A stretch of DNA of 64,000 bases, taken from the NCBI RefSeq assembly GCF_016026235.1, contig NZ_CP065613.1, one strand, 5' to 3'. This stretch comes from Escherichia coli. Lineage in GTDB: Bacteria; Pseudomonadota; Gammaproteobacteria; Enterobacterales; Enterobacteriaceae. Positions 3,797 to 57,818 of this stretch are shown one piece after another. How positions within the stretch are numbered: the stretch's first letter is position 1; every line of letters starts with the position of its first letter. The notes beneath the pieces are model-generated. The model made no database searches, had not been told where the DNA came from, and saw nothing but the letters and a program-made list of their open reading frames with translations. The translations under genes and the position numbers were made by a program.

Positions 3797-5305
3797 ATGG
3801 AATGGCAACAATTGCTTAACTGCAACCGTCGGAAAGATAATCTAAAAAAAACCAACATAGCATTTTTACATCCCCTTGCTAGCGGAAGACAAGAGATCGA
3901 ACGGGATTACGACCGATTACTTTTTGCTGCGCCAACTCGTCGCCTTGCGGATAAAACACAAGTTTTCCCGTTAGATCAAAATGACAGCATACGGACGAGA
4001 CTGACTCATTCTCACGAAGTAGCAAACTTTGCTCGCGGAATAGGAATGAGACTCGCTTTCGAGATGAAGGAGCACATCTTTGGCGAAATACCCACGGGGA
4101 TTGTCGTTGAACGCGACGTTCCTGCTCTGTTAGCAGCGATCGGACTGGCACACGATCTCGGTAATCCACCATTTGGGCATCAAGGTGAAGCAGCGATGCG
4201 CGCATGGTTTAATAAAAATCTTCCAGGTCTTCTTGATAAAGAAGTAAACAGCGAAATATATAACGACTTTCTGCAATTTGATGGAAACTCACAAACCCTG
4301 CGCCTGGTTACCAAATTACAAATTATTAACGATAACTTTGGTCTGAATTTGACCTATGCCACGCTGGCTGCACTGATCAAATATCCCCGAGCTTCATATT
4401 CATCGGACAAACATTGGAAAAAGCACGGTTTTTTCTATTCTGAGCATGAGGTTGTCATGGATGTCTGGCAGCAAACGGGCCTTGGCGTACCAGGTAATGA
4501 TGCCGGTTGCCGCCACCCATTTACCTGGATAATGGAAGCTTGCGACGATATTGCCTACTCTGTGCTTGACGCAGAAGATACCATCAAGAAAGGATTTGCC
4601 TCATACCAGGATTTGCGTGATTTTTTGATGTCACAATCCGGGGCGAACGATGTAATTGAAAATGTTATTAAAGCTGTAGAGGCCAAAAATGACGCCTGGA
4701 AAGAGCAAAGAAATGCACTTTCACCGGCAGAAATTAATGAACTCAGTATGCAAATGTTCAGAGTGTATGCCACCAGTGCATTGATTAATGCCGTAGTAGA
4801 AGCCTTTCGCGAACAATTACCCACGCTGATGCAGCGTGACTGCCCGTTCAAAGATTTAATCTCGCAAAGCAAAGGTCACGCCCTCTGCACTGCCCTGAAA
4901 ATGTTCGACCGAACACGAGGCTACCTTCATCGTTCAGTCTTGCAACTGGAACTTAGGGGGTCTAATTACATTACTAACTTGATGGATATGCTCTGGATTG
5001 GCATCCATGGACACAAAACAAAGAAAGAACGAGACGGAGAACGCGAGTCCGCGTCTGCAGATAACCTTTTTGTTTCTCGTGAAGAATACCTGTCGGATAC
5101 TCCCTTTGGTCGCTATGCTTACGGGACAATATCTGAAAATTATCGCCGTGTGTTTGAAGATCCCGCCAATACACTCCCTGTTCTTTATAAAGAAGCGCAG
5201 TTGCTTACCGACGCAATCTCAGGCATGACGGATAGTTATTTAATGCGCCTTCACGATGAGCTAAAATCACTGTATGAATGTGGTCTCAAACACCCAACAG
5301 CTTGA
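3797..5305 (+). CDS. Dgt-family dGTP triphosphohydrolase-like HD-domain protein (502 aa)
   Basis: Motifs RTRLTHSHEVANF, LAHDLGNPPFGHQGE, FDGNSQTLRLV and FTWIMEACDDIAYSVLD align with conserved blocks of E. coli Dgt (recalled). RBS AAGGTGA 7 nt upstream of ATG. AT-rich relative to flanking che/flh genes. Confidence 0.8.
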   Translation: MEWQQLLNCNRRKDNLKKTNIAFLHPLASGRQEIERDYDRLLFAAPTRRLADKTQVFPLDQNDSIRTRLTHSHEVANFARGIGMRLAFEMKEHIFGEIPTGIVVERDVPALLAAIGLAHDLGNPPFGHQGEAAMRAWFNKNLPGLLDKEVNSEIYNDFLQFDGNSQTLRLVTKLQIINDNFGLNLTYATLAALIKYPRASYSSDKHWKKHGFFYSEHEVVMDVWQQTGLGVPGNDAGCRHPFTWIMEACDDIAYSVLDAEDTIKKGFASYQDLRDFLMSQSGANDVIENVIKAVEAKNDAWKEQRNALSPAEINELSMQMFRVYATSALINAVVEAFREQLPTLMQRDCPFKDLISQSKGHALCTALKMFDRTRGYLHRSVLQLELRGSNYITNLMDMLWIGIHGHKTKKERDGERESASADNLFVSREEYLSDTPFGRYAYGTISENYRRVFEDPANTLPVLYKEAQLLTDAISGMTDSYLMRLHDELKSLYECGLKHPTA

Positions 5306-6026
5306 ACAGCGTATCGCCGATTTTTTTACGCTTAGTGATGAGCATAAGAAAGCCAGAGTATTACTTGATACTCTGGCCTGTTCCTGTCCGGCCTGGATTT
5401 TTGGCGGGATGGTGCGTGACTTAGGCTTGTTTGGCGTCGAAGGATTCTCTTCAGACCTTGATATCGTCATCGGTCGCTCGCGTGAGGAACTCTTCCAGAC
5501 ATTGGCTGAACTGCCCGTCAAACAACTGCGTTTTAATAAGTTTGGTGGGATCCGTTTTCGTTATCACGACTTCGAATTTGATATCTGGAACCTCAATGAG
5601 ACATGGGCATTTCGGGAAAAACTTATATTTTGTGAGGATGAATCAAGTCTGTTAAACACTACGCTAATGAGTTGGGATGCCGTGCTCTATGATCTACGTA
5701 GTGAAAAAATTATCAGTAAAGATAATTATTTGACCGATTTAAATCGCAGACATCTTGAACTTGTTCTTCATACTAACCCCAATCCAAGCGGTTCGGTAAC
5801 GAAGATTTTACGCACTATTTTTACTAAGCAGGTAAAGAGTTTAGGGCCGGAACTCTGTCATTTCTTGCACCATGAACTGACGAAAAAACGTTATGAAGTA
5901 TGGCATCACTACGATGTACTGCACTACCAATCATCGTCATTTTCTCGTTCACAATTTAATGCATTGATAAATTTACTGGCGCAACAATCACGCTTCGCTG
6001 ATCTAAAATTATCAAACTACAAATAA
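5274..6026 (+). CDS. Minimal nucleotidyltransferase, CCA-adding enzyme / poly(A) polymerase head-domain type (250 aa)
   Basis: WIFGGMVRDLGLFGVEGFSSDLDIVIG matches the GGxVRDxLLG...DxD head motif of class II tRNA nucleotidyltransferases/PcnB. Start overlaps the upstream dGTPase-like ORF by 32 nt; exact start codon uncertain. Confidence 0.6.
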   Translation: MNVVSNTQQLEQRIADFFTLSDEHKKARVLLDTLACSCPAWIFGGMVRDLGLFGVEGFSSDLDIVIGRSREELFQTLAELPVKQLRFNKFGGIRFRYHDFEFDIWNLNETWAFREKLIFCEDESSLLNTTLMSWDAVLYDLRSEKIISKDNYLTDLNRRHLELVLHTNPNPSGSVTKILRTIFTKQVKSLGPELCHFLHHELTKKRYEVWHHYDVLHYQSSSFSRSQFNALINLLAQQSRFADLKLSNYK

Positions 6027-8224: not shown

Positions 8225-9085
8225 TTAATCCTTACTTAGCGCATACACCGTCTGACCACGCAGCGTGAAGCGGCGCTCAAGGTGGCTAAAGTTTTCAGAG
8301 TGACCCGCAAACAGCAATCCGTCGGGTTTAAGGAGCGGAACAAAGCGGCGCAAAATCTCCTGCTGGGTATTTTGATCGAAGTAGATCATGACGTTACGAC
8401 AGAAGATCGCATCAAACGGCCCCGGCACGGTGTACTGTTTCGCCAGTAAATTCAGCGGGGCAAAATCAACATAGTTCGCCAGCTCCTGACGCACGCGTAC
8501 CAGCCCTTCATGCGGTCCCGTCCCTCGCATGAAATACCGTTGCAGTTGCTGCGGCGTCAGGTTTTTCAACTCTTCATGGCGATAAATACCGCTTCTGGCT
8601 TTTTCCAGCACTTCGGTGTCGATATCGCTGGCAAACACTTTCCAGCGTCCGGGCGCGGTGCCCAATGTGTCAGCCAGCGTCATCGCAATGCTGTATGGCT
8701 CTTCGCCGGTTGAAGCCGCCGCGCTCCATACGCGATACTCGCCAGAACGGCGACGTGCGTGATCCGCGAGCAGAGGGAAATGATGTGCCTCACGGAAAAA
8801 TGCCGTCAGATTCGTGGTCAGCGAATTGATAAACGCCTGCCACTCACCGCTGTGCTGATTAGATTCCAGCAAGTTCAGATAATGACCGAAATCCGTCAGT
8901 CCCAGCGAACGCAAACGACGAACCAGTCGGTTGTAAACCATGTCGCGTTTATGATCGGCCAGGACGATCCCGGCTCGTTGATAGATCAATTGACTTATCC
9001 GCCGAAAATGCGCGTCGGAAAGCGCCAGGCGCTCGGTCATCTGTAACAATAAAGACGTTTGCCCACAGGGCAGAGATGAAGTCAT
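8225..9085 (-). CDS. cheR: Chemotaxis methyltransferase CheR (286 aa)
   Basis: Full-length match [30 protein letters not shown]... Confidence 0.96.
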
Positions 9086-9103
9086 AGCGCCTTCTCAATC
9101 ACT

Positions 9104-10705
9104 TCAGGATACCACTGGCGCAATTTGTAACTGCGCCGACTCATGTCGTGCTACTTCATGTTCTTCAAGGGTAAATACCGCCACACGCGACGAAAGATGG
9201 TCGGCCTGATTCGCCAGTTGTTCCGTTGCCACCGCCGCTTCTTCTACCAGCGAGGCGTTCTGCTGAGTCACCTGATCCATCTGGCTGACAGCCTGTGCAA
9301 CCTGCTCAATCCCCCGCTGTTGTTCTTCCGACGCAGAGGCAATTTCTCCCATAATGTCGTTCACGCGGGTCACCGAACTGACAATATCGATCATGGTCGC
9401 GGCGGCGTTATTCACCAGTTTCGAACCCTGCTGGACACGATTGACTGACTCTTCGATCAGCCCTTTGATCTCTTTTGCTGCCTGCGCGCTACGGCTGGCA
9501 AGATTGCGCACTTCACCTGCCACTACCGCAAAACCACGCCCCTGCTCTCCGGCGCGAGCCGCTTCCACTGCCGCATTCAGGGCCAGAATATTGGTCTGGA
9601 AAGCAATTCCGTCGATAACGCTGATAATGTCGCCAATTTTTTGCGAGCTGGTGGCGATCTCCTGCATGGTGTGAGTCATGGTACTGACCTGAACACCGCC
9701 CGCCTGCGCCGTTGTCGCGGCATTTTTTGCCAGTTCCGACGCCTGTCGTGCGTTATCGGCGTTTTGCCCTACCGTGGCGGTTAATTGCTCCATACTGGCG
9801 GCCGTTTGTGCCAGCGATGCCGCCTGCTGTTCGGTACGACTTGAGAGATCGTTATTGCCTGCGACAATCTCCGCGATACCAATGTGCATCTCCTGGCTTC
9901 CCTTACGCACATCACTTACCGTCCCACGCAAAGCCTGCTGCATGGTCTTCAGACTGGCAAAAATGGCGGTGATCTCATTACGACCATATACCGCAATCGG
10001 ACGCGCCAGATTACCCGCAGCAATGCTGTCAAAATGGCTACCAATAATGGCCAGTGGTTGAACAATCATCTTGCGCGTCCACCACAGCGCACTGCTGATG
10101 TAGATTGCCGCAACAATAATCATGCTGATAAACACCAGCGCCGAAATCTGATAGTTACGCTGACTTTGCGCACTGGCGGCTTCCAGCACATGGTTGATCT
10201 CCAGCTGCCAGGCCTCAAAGTTAACGTCAAACGCATTCTGTGATCCCTGCACCGGCGCAGTGAGGAAATCCGAAAGTTGATTACTTTCAAGCCAGGTCGC
10301 CTGATGTTCGAGATCGTTGTGCCAGCGGGCAAAACTTTTCTCCGTCTCTTTTTGCAATGCCCTGACGTGCTCGTTGCCCGCAGTCATCGCCATAAAACTT
10401 TTAAACAGCGTGGTGGATTGCGTCAGACTGGCGCGCACCGTCGTCATCAACGTTTTAATGTCATCCGCCGGATAGCTAAGTGCCGTCAGAGTGCCCGCTT
10501 TGTTCAGCGCGGTACTGGCCTGTAACATTACCGCCCGAGTTTGCGCTAATGCCGCACGTTGCTGATTGCTCTGCTCGACCTGATTCAGTCGTTGCAAATC
10601 GTCGCGAAATGCCCAAAAAGACATGCCGTTACTGCCAATCTGCAAGATCCCGCAGAGAATCAAAATTAAAAACAGCGTGGTCGAAATTCGAATACGATTA
10701 AACAT
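9104..10705 (-). CDS. tap: Methyl-accepting chemotaxis protein IV Tap (dipeptide/pyrimidine chemoreceptor)
   Basis: Matches Tap from MFNRIRISTTLF (second Met of the ORF); HAMP and conserved MCP signalling domain present. Confidence 0.94.
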   Translation of the reverse strand: MFNRIRISTTLFLILILCGILQIGSNGMSFWAFRDDLQRLNQVEQSNQQRAALAQTRAVMLQASTALNKAGTLTALSYPADDIKTLMTTVRASLTQSTTLFKSFMAMTAGNEHVRALQKETEKSFARWHNDLEHQATWLESNQLSDFLTAPVQGSQNAFDVNFEAWQLEINHVLEAASAQSQRNYQISALVFISMIIVAAIYISSALWWTRKMIVQPLAIIGSHFDSIAAGNLARPIAVYGRNEITAIFASLKTMQQALRGTVSDVRKGSQEMHIGIAEIVAGNNDLSSRTEQQAASLAQTAASMEQLTATVGQNADNARQASELAKNAATTAQAGGVQVSTMTHTMQEIATSSQKIGDIISVIDGIAFQTNILALNAAVEAARAGEQGRGFAVVAGEVRNLASRSAQAAKEIKGLIEESVNRVQQGSKLVNNAAATMIDIVSSVTRVNDIMGEIASASEEQQRGIEQVAQAVSQMDQVTQQNASLVEEAAVATEQLANQADHLSSRVAVFTLEEHEVARHESAQLQIAPVVS

Positions 10706-10750
10706 CAACGCTCCCCATCAGGCGGCAATGACCGCGTTAGTAAATACTCG

Positions 10751-12412
10751 TCAAAATGTTTCCCAGTTTGGATCTTGTTCAGCAATTCGCAGTCGTGGCT
10801 GTGCCGGTGGTTGCTCACTGGCAGGACGGGATGGTGTTTGCGGTTTATTGGTGAGTGGGCTGGCTGCCAGACGGAACGCGGAAACCGCTTGCGTTAAACG
10901 ACTCGCCTGTTCTTCCAGCGCAGCGGCGGCGGCAGCTGATTCCTGCACCAGCGATGCGTTCTGTTGCGTGACGCGATCCATTTCCGAAACCGCCAATGCG
11001 ACTTGATCGATGCCACGGCTCTGTTCATCCGATGCCGATGCAATCTCGCCCATAATGTCAGTCACGCGAGTGACAGCATTGACGATATTGTTCATTGTTT
11101 CCCCGGCGCTTTCGACCAGCACCGAACCGGTATCAACGCGTGCGACGGAGTCTTCAATGAGGGCTTTGATCTCTTTTGCCGCTTGGGCGCTGCGACTGGC
11201 AAGATTACGCACTTCACCCGCCACCACGGCAAAACCACGGCCCTGTTCACCCGCACGCGCGGCTTCAACCGCGGCATTCAGCGCGAGGATATTAGTCTGG
11301 AAGGCAATACCGTCGATAACGCTGATAATGTCGGCAATTTTCTTCGAACTATCGGCGATCTCATGCATCGTTTTCACTACGCCATCCACCACTTTGCCGC
11401 CGTGCTGGGCGGTGTCGGAGGCACTTTGCGCCAGTTGCGAGGCCTGGCGGGCGTTATCGGCGTTTTGCTTCACTGTCGCGGTGAGCTGCTCCATGCTGGC
11501 GGCAGTTTCTTCCAGCGCGGATGCCTGCTGTTCAGTACGGGAGGAAAGATCGGTGTTGCCCGCCGCAATTTCACGGGTACCGGCATAGATGGCATCTGAA
11601 CCTTCGCGGACATGAGTGACGGTGTCAGTCAAAGAGCGTTGCATATGTGAAACGCTCTGCGCCAGGTCGCCCATTTCACTGCGCCCGTCAATGGTCAGGG
11701 TATTCGCCAGGTTACCACCGGCGATTTCGCGAATGTGAGCAATAATTTTTGCCAGCGGAGTAAGCAACATACGGCGAATGCCGTACCACGCCACCAGCAG
11801 AATCAATACCACCACCAGCGCGATAACCGCCAGTTGCCACTGGGCAAATCGGTAATCATCTGCGTTGTCAGTGACGATATCGCGATACAGTTTTTCACTG
11901 CTGAGGGCGTACTGAGCAAACGCTTCGCCCATTGCATTTTGCATTCCCTGGGTTGGCTGAGCGAAATAAGCTCCAGTATTGCCATAATCTAGATAATCAA
12001 TCAGTTCAGTTAACGCTGTGTAATAGTTTTTATATTTTTCATCAATATTACGACTGGTAGCGACCATTTCAGGTAACGGTGCCATGCTTTTGAATTTTTT
12101 ATAATGCGTCGCTGCCTGCGCCAATGTTTTCCTGGCGCTATCGAGCAATTCAACTTTGGCGTTACTTTGTTGATTGGAGGAATCCATCATCATCCGCACC
12201 GCTGAACGACTCAGGTTAATGCGCGTTTGCAGCATTAAATCCCAGGTTGACGTCAGCTCGCCCTGCTGTTCCCGTAATTGATTGGAAACCACAAAGCTCT
12301 TCTGGCTATGGTGAAGGGAAGAAAAAAACAGACTGCCGGAAATAAGCTGTAACAGTGCGAATACCCCCAGCACCATTACCAACAGCGTGACTACGCGGAT
12401 ACGGTTAATCAT
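10751..12412 (-). CDS. tar: Methyl-accepting chemotaxis protein II Tar (aspartate/maltose chemoreceptor), 553 aa
   Basis: Matches Tar from [23 protein letters not shown]-terminal NWETF pentapeptide present. Start ATG at 12410-12412. Confidence 0.94.
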
Positions 12413-12443
12413 AAGGCACCTTCCTGAAAACAAGTTGATCTCG

Positions 12444-12470
12444 TTATCGGCAAGAAGGGGGGAAACTTTA
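12444..12470 (-). promoter_or_regulatory. Sigma-28 (FliA) class III promoter of tar-tap-cheRBYZ
   Basis: Minus strand reads TAAAGTTT-N11-GCCGATAA, a perfect FliA consensus, about 30 nt upstream of the tar ATG. Confidence 0.85.
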
Positions 12471-12498
12471 TTGCTGATGCCACCCGCCGCGAAATTGA

Positions 12499-12530
12499 AA
12501 TAAAAAACCCGATGCGCAGATCATCGGGTT
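12499..12530 (-). terminator. Rho-independent terminator after cheW (end of motAB-cheAW operon)
   Basis: GC-rich hairpin AACCCGATG...CATCGGGTT followed on the minus strand by a T-run. Confidence 0.7.
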
Positions 12531-12556
12531 CATTTCAATTGAGGAAATCGGGAGAA

Positions 12557-13060
12557 TTACGCCACTTCTGACGCCGCGCTATCTAACAGCGCCATCTCTT
12601 CGCTGTTCAGCAGTTTTTCGATGTTCACCAGAATCAACATACGGTCGCCCAGTGCGCCCAGTCCAGTGAGATATTCTGTTGAAAGCGTCACGGCAAACTC
12701 TGGTGCCGGACGAATTTGCTCCGCCGTCAATGAAAGCACGTCTGAAACGCCGTCAACCACGATGCCGACCACCCGCTGTCCGAGATTCAGGACGATAACT
12801 ACCGTGTTGTCGTTATAGTCCACATCCACCTGGCTGAACTTAATTCGTAAGTCAACAATCGGCACAATAACGCCGCGCAGATTCGTGACGCCTTTGATAA
12901 ACGCTGGCGTGTTCGCAATCCGTGTTACCTGATCGTAGCCACGGATCTCCTGCACTTTCAGGATATCAATACCGTACTCTTCATCACCAAGGGTAAATAC
13001 CAGAAATTCCTGGCCTGACGGCTCGCTGGCCAGCTTTGTTACATTCGTCATACCGGTCAT
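12557..13060 (-). CDS. cheW: Chemotaxis coupling protein CheW (167 aa)
   Basis: Full-length match [42 protein letters not shown]... Confidence 0.96.
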
Positions 13061-13080: not shown

Positions 13081-15972
<2,892 letters not shown>

Positions 15973-16245
15973 GCTTCCTCGGTTGTCGTCTGTTGTTGCG
16001 GATTTTTCACCGCACGCACATGCTCTTCCAGTTCAATAAACGACGGACGTTCGCTGGAATAGAGCGTTTTGCGACCAAACTCAACGGCGATAGGCGGTGC
16101 GTAACCGTTCAGATTAGAAAGCAGAGTGACTTTGACGCACTGCATCATTTTGCTGGTTTCGGCGCTTTTCTGACGTAAAACACTCGCTAATGGGGAAATA
16201 AATCCGTAAGCCAATAAAATGCCGAGGAAAGTCCCCTGAGGAATC

Positions 16246-17528
16246 CCCAGAAAACAAGACAGGCATAGTGAGATGTGATCTAATTGATTGTGCTAACAAT
16301 TTCAAGGAGATCACCACTATGCCTGCACGTTCATTATGCCAAAATTTCCTTAACAACATACTGGCCCCTTTGCATCTTTACCGTCAAAAATCACTGATTG
16401 ACGCAACTAATGCTGTAATAAATGGCGCTTCCCTCACACTTACCAGTATCGGGCGTCATTTAACCGGTACGGCATCAGTTAAAAACAAAATAAAGCGGGT
16501 GGATCGACTGTTGGGGAATCGACATTTGCAAAATGAGGTTTCCACCATTTTTCAGCGAATTACCCAAAAGATTACGCGGGGAATGTCTCGTGTTGTGATA
16601 CTCATTGACTGGAGTGCTTATCATGCCTCTCGTTTTCAGCTTTTGCGGGCAAGCCTGGCATGTGACGGGCGTTCTTTACCGTTGATGAGTTGTGTCGTTC
16701 CATCATCACAGACAGCGAATGCAGATGTACATGAGCGTTTTCTGGAATCGCTTGCTGAGTGCTTTTCCCCCGGGACTGATGTCATTGTTATTACAGATGC
16801 CGGTTTTCAGGGGCGATGGTTCCAACAGCTCCGCTCCCGTGGCTGGACCTATATTTGCCGGGTACTGGGCAATCATTATTACAATGTTGGTAATGGCTGG
16901 GAAAAGGTGTCGGACTCAGGCACAAAAGCATCAACGACAGCAATTTATTTAGGTGAAGGCCTGCTGGGTCGAGATAAAAATGCACAACATGAAGGGCATT
17001 TTTATCTTTATAAAAGTAAGCCTAAAGGTCGTTGATTTAAACGCTCGAAGGAAAGAGCAACCAGACCATCGGTGACGGCTAAAGCTCGTACTGCCGGGAA
17101 ATCACCATGGTTTATTTTCACAAACAGTACTGAGTTCTCGCCAAAACAGGTAATGAAATTATACAGCCGTAGAATGCAAATTGAGCAAAATTTCAGGGAT
17201 GAAAAAATCCTCGCTGGGGATTTGGACTACGGTTTGGTGCCAGTCATTCATCCGGGCGGGTCACGGTATTGAGTCTGATCGCAACATTAGCCAGTATCAT
17301 TATGTGGTTAAGCGGTTTCAGCCTGGAAAACAAAGGGATACATCATAAATATCAGGCAAATACAGTGAAGCACAGGCGAGTCATCTCGTTATTAAAACTG
17401 GCGGAGAATGTGATTCGACATTCTCCACTCATACTAAACACACTGTCACTTGACGCAGGGCTGAAAGTTCTACAGCAACGGTATACCAATATGATAATGG
17501 TTTACTAAATTTTCTGGGGATCCCTCAG
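16246..17528 (+). mobile_element. IS4-family, IS10-like insertion sequence (~1.28 kb) inside motA
   Basis: Ends are inverted repeats CTGAGG(A/G)ATCCCCAGAAAA, resembling IS10 termini; flanked by a ~9 bp target duplication (GAAAGTCC core); internal ORFs homologous to IS10 transposase. Confidence 0.8.
16268..17508 (+). pseudogene. IS10-like transposase, degraded into three ORFs (16268..17035, 17072..17272, 17269..17508)
   Basis: Segments align in order with IS10 transposase blocks (KRVDRLLGNRHL, ILIDWS, ITDAGF, YSRRMQIEQNFRDEK, YQANTVKHRRV) but are separated by a stop and a frame change. Confidence 0.75.
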
Positions 17529-18285
17529 GGAAAGTCCCCACCATCGCATGTGCGATAAGCGCACCCAGCTCGGCGGCAGGACGATCGGCTGAACCTAACG
17601 CGTGAACGACCCCCATTACAGCCGCGACAATACCAAACGCCGGAAGTGAGTCCCCGACCAGCGCCAGACTGTTCGCCGGGACTTCTGCCTCGCTTTCGTG
17701 CGTCTCAATCTCTTCATCCATCAGGGCTTCGATTTCGAAGGTGTTCATATGACCGCTGATAATCAGACGCAGATAATCGACGATAAAATCAAGCATGACG
17801 CTATCCGCGAGGATGCGTGGGTAGCTGGCGAAGATCTCGCTCTCACGGGGATTTTCAATATCACGTTCCAGCGAAAACATCCCCATCTGCCGCGATTTCG
17901 CCATCAACCGATAAAGCAGAGCCAGCAGATCCATATACATTGCTTTGGTGTATTTGGAGCGACGAAACAGCAACGGCAGCGCTTTCAGCGTGCCTTTAAT
18001 CGCTTTGCCATTATTGCCGACGATAAACGACCCAATCCCTGCACCGGCAATAATCACCAGTTCAGCGGGTTGATAGAGTGCTCCAAGGCTTCCACCGGTC
18101 ATCAAATAACCGCCGAAAACTGTACCGAGAACAACCAGGTAACCTAATAAGATAAGCACGACATCATCCTTCCACTGTTGACCATGACAGGATGTTCAGT
18201 CGTCAGGCGTTAACGCGCGATTGGGGCAAAAAAAAGCAGCGGTACGTCGTTACCGCTGCTGGAATGTTGCGCCACACCGTATCAG

Positions 18286-36396: not shown

Positions 36397-36672
36397 GTGG
36401 CTTCTGTTTCTATCAGCTGTCCCTCCTGTTCAGCTACTGACGGGGTGGTGCGTAACGGCAAAAGCACCGCCGGACATCAGCGCTATCTCTGCTCTCACTG
36501 CCGTAAAACATGGCAACTGCAGTTCACTTACACCGCTTCTCAACCCGGTACGCACCAGAAAATCATTGATATGGCCATGAATGGCGTTGGATGCCGGGCA
36601 ACTGCCCGCATTATGGGCGTTGGCCTCAACACGATTTTACGTCACTTAAAAAACTCAGGCCGCAGTCGGTAA
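36397..36672 (+). CDS. insA: IS1 protein InsA
   Basis: [43 protein letters not shown]... matches InsA. Confidence 0.9.
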
Positions 36673-37094
36673 CCTCGCGCATACAGCCGGGCAGTGACGT
36701 CATCGTCTGCGCGGAAATGGACGAACAGTGGGGCTATGTCGGGGCTAAATCGCGCCAGCGCTGGCTGTTTTACGCGTATGACAGTCTCCGGAAGACGGTT
36801 GTTGCGCACGTATTCGGTGAACGCACTATGGCGACGCTGGGGCGTCTTATGAGCCTGCTGTCACCCTTTGACGTGGTGATATGGATGACGGATGGCTGGC
36901 CGCTGTATGAATCCCGCCTGAAGGGAAAGCTGCACGTAATCAGCAAGCGATATACGCAGCGAATTGAGCGGCATAACCTGAATCTGAGGCAGCACCTGGC
37001 ACGGCTGGGACGGAAGTCGCTGTCGTTCTCAAAATCGGTGGAGCTGCATGACAAAGTCATCGGGCATTATCTGAACATAAAACACTATCAATAA
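36591..37094 (+). CDS. insB: IS1 transposase InsB reading frame (expressed as InsAB by -1 frameshift)
   Basis: ORF matches InsB (...[21 protein letters not shown]...); overlaps insA in the -1 frame. Confidence 0.85.
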
Positions 37095-57050: not shown

Positions 57051-57818
57051 GGTAATGACTCCAACTTACTGATAGTGTTTTATGTTCAGATAATGCCCGA
57101 TGACCTTGTCATGCAGCTCCACCGATTTTGAGAACGACAGTGACTTCCGTCCCAGCCTTGCCAGATGTTGTCTCAGATTCAGATTATGTCGCTCAATGCG
57201 CTGAGTGTAACGCTTGCTGATAACGTGCAGCTTTCCCTTCAGGCGTGATTCATACAGCGGCCAGCCATCCGTCATCCATACCACGACCTCAAAGGCCGAC
57301 AGCAGGCTCAGAAGACGCTCCAGTGTGGCCAGAGTGCGTTCACCGAAGACGTGCGCCACAACCGTCCTCCGTATCCTGTCATACGCGTAAAACAGCCAGC
57401 GCTGACGTGATTTAGCACCGACGTAGCCCCACTGTTCGTCCATTTCAGCGCAGACAATCACATCACTGCCCGGTTGTATGCGCGAGGTTACCGACTGCGG
57501 CCTGAGTTTTTTAAGTGACGTAAAACCGTGTTGAGGCCAACGCCCATAATGCGTGCACTGGCGCGACATCCGACGCCATTCATGGCCATATCAATGATTT
57601 TCTGGTGCGTACCGGGCTGAGAGGCGGTGTAAGTGAACTGTAGTTGCCATGTTTTACGGCAATGAGAGCAGAGATAGCGCTGATGTCCGGCAGTGCTTTT
57701 GCCGTTACGCACCACGCCTTCAGTAGCGGAGCAGGAAGGACATCTGATGGAAATGGAAGCCACGCAAGCACCTTAAAATCACCATCATACACTAAATCAG
57801 TAAGTTGGCAGCATTACC
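57051..57818 (-). mobile_element. IS1 (768 bp), divergent isoform, no target site duplication
   Basis: Terminal repeats GGTAATGACTCCAACTTA (57051..) and GGTAATGCTGCCAACTTACTG (reverse complement at 57818); insA 57488..57763 and insB 57066..57569 differ at several residues from the IS1 copy at 36342. Flanking 9-mers differ (CGATTCTCT vs CATCTTCAA). Confidence 0.9.

Follow-up and report, generated by a model that had tools for sequence, protein, structure and literature searches.

The tandem chemoreceptor genes tar (MCP-II) and tap (MCP-IV) of Escherichia coli K-12, which belong to the tar-tap-cheRBYZ ('meche') operon, are the closest described system to the locus considered here. The hairpin tip and methylation helices of MCPs are constrained, since all receptors of this type use the same CheA and CheW and assemble into mixed trimers. 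The high-abundance receptor Tar ends in the pentapeptide NWETF, which tethers CheR and CheB, and the low-abundance receptor Tap lacks it. Fusions of the two genes have a laboratory history as well: Slocum, Halden and Parkinson (1987, J Bacteriol 169:2938) reportedly obtained Tar-Tap hybrid transducers from spontaneous tar-tap deletions, and Weerasuriya et al. (1998, J Bacteriol 180:914) are said to have engineered Tar/Tap chimeras. PMC2229510 cites both sets of Tar/Tap fusions as functional chimeras. Among the papers listed by phrase searches for a tar-tap fusion, hybrid, chimera or deletion, none describes a natural one.

The window, that is, the whole stretch of 64,000 nucleotides of E. coli DNA analysed here, carries both genes on the minus strand. 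The tap gene occupies 9104-10705 (533 aa plus stop) and encodes the dipeptide chemoreceptor MCP-IV, as judged from its open reading frame, Pfam domains and annotated relatives. The tar gene occupies 10751-12412 (553 aa plus stop) and is assigned on the same kinds of evidence to the aspartate/maltose chemoreceptor MCP-II. The pair is flanked by cheR (8225-9085) on the tap side and by cheW (12557-13060) on the tar side, and the order cheW-tar-tap-cheR, all on one strand, is that of the orthologous locus. Pfam finds TarH, HAMP and MCPsignal domains in the products of both tap (6e-42, 1.7e-09 and 5.7e-56, respectively) and tar (2.9e-41, 1.6e-11 and 1.5e-62), which is the architecture of the Tar/Tsr class of 36-heptad transmembrane MCPs. 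Tar ends in ...DPNWETF, with the NWETF codons at 10754-10768 (minus strand) in the translation, and Tap ends in ...IAPVVS, without the pentapeptide. Positions 9000-12500 share 99.6% identity with K-12 and 99.9% with E. coli FDAARGOS_943, in both of which tar and tap are annotated, and the preliminary description was right about the two genes, their direct orientation and their known paralogy. The likeness to K-12 extends to gene order, strand, the lengths of 553 and 533 aa, domain architecture and a sigma-28 promoter upstream of tar; only a few substitutions separate the two loci, and the neighbouring cheA and motA are inactivated in the window.

The 45-nt spacer between the genes (10706-10750, minus strand) reads as a GGGGAG ribosome-binding site before the tap ATG. 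Inspection by eye found no evident terminator in this spacer, which fits co-transcription of tar and tap, at the level of sequence. Upstream of tar, a putative promoter of the FliA (sigma-28) type for the operon, TAAAGTTT-N11-GCCGATAA, was read directly at 12444-12470 (minus strand); it matches the FliA consensus. An Rfam search at the gathering threshold found no structured RNA inside tar or tap, its sole match being the C0465 sRNA in the cheW-tar spacer (12460-12537, plus strand; 111.6 bits, E=1e-21), which overlaps the sigma-28 promoter on the opposite strand. There are also antisense stop-free reading frames of 106-211 aa opposite both MCP signalling domains (9354-9674, 10964-11599 and 11010-11588, all on the plus strand). 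These are most likely a by-product of an Ala/Glu/Gln-rich coding strand rather than genes.

Two neighbouring chemotaxis and motility genes are damaged. The cheA pseudogene (13081-15041, minus strand) reads as two open reading frames, 13309-14187 and 14223-15095. Compared with FDAARGOS_943, a substitution at 13311 introduces a stop codon, after which the product ends in ...KTEAT, and the loss of 4 bp near 14240 changes the reading frame. The motA gene is interrupted (15973-18159). Its N-terminal part survives as a reading frame at 17470-18159 (minus strand) with MotA_N and MotA_ExbB domains, and a DDE_Tnp_1 transposase frame lies at 16268-17035 (plus strand); in comparison with FDAARGOS_943 there is an insertion of about 1.3 kb. 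Together the two lesions suggest a non-motile lineage in which the tar and tap reading frames are still intact. Since cheA and motA are inactivated, this strain probably has no working chemotaxis pathway for Tar and Tap to serve. Elsewhere in the window there are two IS1 transposase frames of 167 aa each (36591-37094, plus strand, and 57066-57569, minus strand; Pfam DDE_Tnp_IS1, E=6e-78 and 1e-74). Between flhB and cheZ, two genes are inserted (3797-6026, plus strand). The first encodes a 502-aa HD-domain protein that matches a PADLOC anti-phage dGTPase model (E=1e-70), and the second is a 250-aa frame that overlaps the first and has no Pfam or PADLOC match. In FDAARGOS_943 the same pair is annotated as dgt and a hypothetical protein.

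The cytoplasmic domains of tar and tap form direct repeats on the same strand at an offset of +1701 nt. The tap copy of this paralogous region, which comprises the methylation helices and hairpin tip, lies at 9206-9850 (minus strand; codons 286-500; repeat families D1/D2) and the tar copy at 10907-11551 (minus strand; codons 288-502). Aligned without gaps over 645 nt, they are 72.1% identical, and blastn of tap against tar returns a single HSP of 634 columns with 74.3% identity (E=7e-111), a value that rules out chance similarity. The register is exact: in 50-nt windows at +1701, identity is 0.6-0.84 over 9204-9853 and 0.2-0.45 over the sensing domains, fixed-offset identity in the N-terminal halves is down to 20-40%, and at an offset of 1700, which the preliminary description literally gave, it is 23%. 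That description had placed long stretches of near-identical DNA at about 9350-9700 and about 11050-11400. A direct repeat is indeed present there, but its DNA is not near-identical: the level of identity, which had been left for confirmation, is 74.4% between 9350-9700 and 11051-11401. Megablast with a 28-nt word finds no match between the genes. The longest exact run is 24 nt (9609-9632, partner 11310-11333), followed by runs of 18 nt (9750-9767, partner 11451-11468) and 16 nt (9463-9478).

What is nearly identical is the protein. The best stretch is the hairpin-tip core, 9464-9631 in tap (minus strand) and 11165-11332 in tar, where 143 of 168 nt (85%) agree and all 56 residues (DIISVIDG...AAKEIK) are identical to Tar. 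Codon positions 1 and 2 of this core are 97-100% identical and the third position only about 50%. The core is also about 95% identical to Tsr, and the tip is thus of the invariant type found in Tar/Tsr-class MCPs. The conserved signalling domain is therefore near-identical as protein and not as DNA (about 74%). Selection keeps the MCP domain nearly constant in protein, because the hairpin tip contacts CheA and CheW and packs in mixed trimers of dimers, and the silent sites of tar and tap have diverged to the same extent as those of tar and the unlinked tsr. We consider it very likely that the locus is an ordinary, long-known pair of tandem paralogues in an E. coli-type tar-tap-cheR-cheB-cheY-cheZ operon, and that its direct repeat is the cytoplasmic domain for signalling and adaptation which the two MCPs have in common.

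Theoretically, ongoing gene conversion between the adjacent genes could maintain or refresh their similarity by concerted evolution, and the repeat had been proposed as a substrate for it. The K-12 tsr gene, which is unlinked on the chromosome, serves as the comparison, the measure being identical codons per identical residue in the cytoplasmic domain. The fraction is 0.51 for tar-tap (81/159), 0.52 for tar-tsr (95/182) and 0.47 for tap-tsr (73/156), with longest perfect runs of 24, 28 and 20 nt, respectively. Concerted evolution predicts higher silent similarity in adjacent than in unlinked copies; tar-tap (0.51) equals tar-tsr (0.52) and the tar-tsr run is even longer, so adjacency adds nothing and the pair is not homogenised. 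Under a null model in which codons are independently redrawn from local codon usage, the expected nucleotide identity of tar and tap is 65.1 +/- 1.2%, against 70.4% observed, and a run of at least 24 nt has P=0.015. This modest excess speaks for some conversion and means that silent sites are not fully randomised, but it is also present against the unlinked tsr; there may have been ancient conversion among all MCP genes. Two divergent lineages do show small clusters of tap variants that match the tar base (9302-9335 and 9479-9485). In five other lineages, however, substitutions toward the paralogue (7+3 and 4+4) are balanced by substitutions away from it (6+6 and 3+4) in the homologous zone, and within-strain tap/tar identity stays at 71-72%. 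Thus none of the three tests (tsr comparison, codon null and lineage polymorphisms) gives a signal specific to adjacency, and ongoing conversion between tar and tap is in our judgement highly improbable.

The pair is widespread in its intact form. At least 80% of 9000-12500 is covered in 4,321 complete E. coli genomes, and the full-length region is 97.2-99.9% identical among the matches listed. Deletions that join the two genes were sought with a chimeric query composed of 9000-9210 (the end of cheR with the 3' end of tap) and 11600-12000 (the sensing domain of tar), pieces that are joined only where the approximately 1.7 kb between them is missing. Three of the 5,385 complete E. coli genomes matching this query carry an exact 1701-bp, in-register tar'-'tap fusion. 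The joined span in these genomes is 1300 bp rather than 3001 bp, so that exactly 1701 bp is lost, and each has a single gene of 1608 nt (535 aa) between cheW and cheR. The three strains are ETEC4088 (pig, Belgium), ET474 (frog, China) and PEC389 (pig, Korea). The natural 535-aa alleles have the same topology as the laboratory Tar-Tap hybrids, with a Tar N-terminus in register with a Tap C-terminus, but the latter are laboratory isolates and the former come from wild pig and frog isolates.

When all sites that differ between tap and tar are scored as tap-type or tar-type, every fusion changes from tap-type to tar-type just once and cleanly. ET474 and PEC389 are tap-type up to and including site 9608 and tar-type from site 9633 onwards, which places the crossover within the 24-nt run at 9609-9632. 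In ETEC4088 the corresponding sites are 9749 and 9768, and the crossover therefore lies within the 18-nt run at 9750-9767. Over 4300 nt there is no difference between ET474 and PEC389, and 65 sites set ETEC4088 apart from both, which means that there were two independent events. With uniform placement over a zone of 675 nt, the probability that both crossovers fall in the two longest runs by chance is about (44/675)^2 = 0.004. The repeat is therefore, as had been proposed, a substrate for deletion, a real but weak one. The reciprocal product, a duplication with a tap'-'tar hybrid between tap and tar, was not found on any of the 4,321 chromosomes, since each has the tap sensing-domain DNA exactly once. 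Matches to the tar/tap region also occur on plasmid-labelled records, in 4 places with the chimeric query and in 1 with the tap sensing-domain query.

Paralogous repeats can in principle collapse during assembly, and the preliminary description named this pair as a common source of such collapse. If so, the repeat itself, or the fused alleles elsewhere, would be an artefact of collapsed or mis-joined paralogous sequence. The longest word shared by the genes is 24 nt, and only 18 nt at one of the junctions, and megablast gives no match between them. Words of this size should be shorter than the k-mers of common assemblers. Moreover, the window is collinear with the 4,321 complete genomes that hold the intact pair, and the fused alleles recur exactly: the identical hybrid proteins are recorded on 28 and 71 contigs from many separate public assemblies, always in the context cheA-cheW-hybrid-cheR-cheB-cheY-cheZ. 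This recurrence marks them as inherited alleles and not assembly errors. An artefact is hardly credible on these data; the tar/tap pair of the window is correctly assembled, and the fused alleles are real as far as their sequences tell. One draft genome with the ET474-type hybrid, GCA_907172595.1, has a split cheR with products of 210 and 89 aa (4127-4986 of locus L010).

The rarity of the fusions agrees with the quality of the repeat. Efficient RecBCD/RecA exchange needs perfect identity over about 23-27 bp, and once divergence reaches about 20%, exchange is strongly suppressed by mismatch repair. The tar and tap copies are direct repeats on the same molecule (+1701, same strand), as a RecA substrate should be, but they have neither long stretches of unbroken identity (well beyond about 25 bp) nor low divergence, with runs of at most 24 nt and 26% divergence. 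With about 74% identity over about 640 nt, they would make a poor, though not null, substrate for unequal homologous exchange. Such a substrate agrees with a yield of two events among 5,385 genomes, both of which have their junctions in the longest runs. The exchange may have been RecA-dependent or may have occurred by slippage. The 18-nt crossover is below the usual RecBCD/RecA minimum, so the ETEC4088 event may have used another route.

A rare exchange of this kind deletes exactly 1701 bp and leaves one in-frame gene. Its predicted product follows Tar as far as about residue 315-321 or 360-368 and Tap from there on, and would thus combine the sensing, transmembrane and HAMP parts of Tar with the tip and C-terminus of Tap. 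Since the hybrid ends as Tap, NWETF is lost, which should lower methylation-dependent adaptation and clockwise signalling. The laboratory hybrids of Slocum 1987 and Weerasuriya 1998 reportedly give grounds for expecting both effects. At least two wild E. coli lineages retain the hybrids, which recur on dozens of contigs. One could imagine that selection maintains them in animal-associated strains as variants that retune adaptation and the response to aspartate and maltose, rather than that they are neutral or slightly deleterious deletions. If that were true, the tar/tap repeat would be a built-in switch between two states, one with both receptors and one with a single receptor; we consider this reading improbable.

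Most natural loss of tap has a different origin. Lane et al. (2006) and Borziak et al. (2013) are said to have described tap loss in B2-phylogroup and uropathogenic E. coli. About 1,100 of 5,425 genomes cover just 61% of 9000-12500. In RM14723, a B2-type strain in which the junction was read, 9211-10584 is missing and tar is intact. This deletion of 1374 bp lies inside tap and is bounded by an 8-bp microhomology, CCTGATTC, at 9205-9212 and again at 10579-10586. About 1,100 complete E. coli genomes carry this type of internal tap deletion. An exchange between tar and tap is ruled out as the cause of the common loss, because the deletion runs between the two CCTGATTC repeats within tap. One microhomology deletion thus accounts for nearly all natural tap loss, and the tar/tap paralogy is not used. 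The observation agrees with published reports of Tap loss in B2 and uropathogenic E. coli at the same locus (PMC3559539). The description of Tap as 'completely lost' in B2 strains (PMC12623472) differs from RM14723 in one respect, since both tap ends are still present there as remnants, namely a 5' piece, which the annotation lists as a pseudogene of 152 nt, and some 100 nt from the 3' end.

For the window itself these results are of little import, because it holds a textbook pair of paralogues. The paralogy, the operon and the laboratory fusions have long been known, and the natural hybrids are a minor addition and not a new kind of gene. The idea of near-identical DNA is replaced by that of a repeat conserved in protein and diverged at silent sites, and hence weak as a recombination substrate. 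The contrast is between two independent fusions in 5,385 genomes, both at the longest perfect runs, and a single microhomology deletion behind nearly all tap loss. In E. coli the tar/tap repeat is a known paralogy that only rarely fuses the two genes in wild strains, and the natural hybrids are a small test system, already at hand, for how exchange between diverged repeats depends on the length of perfect identity.
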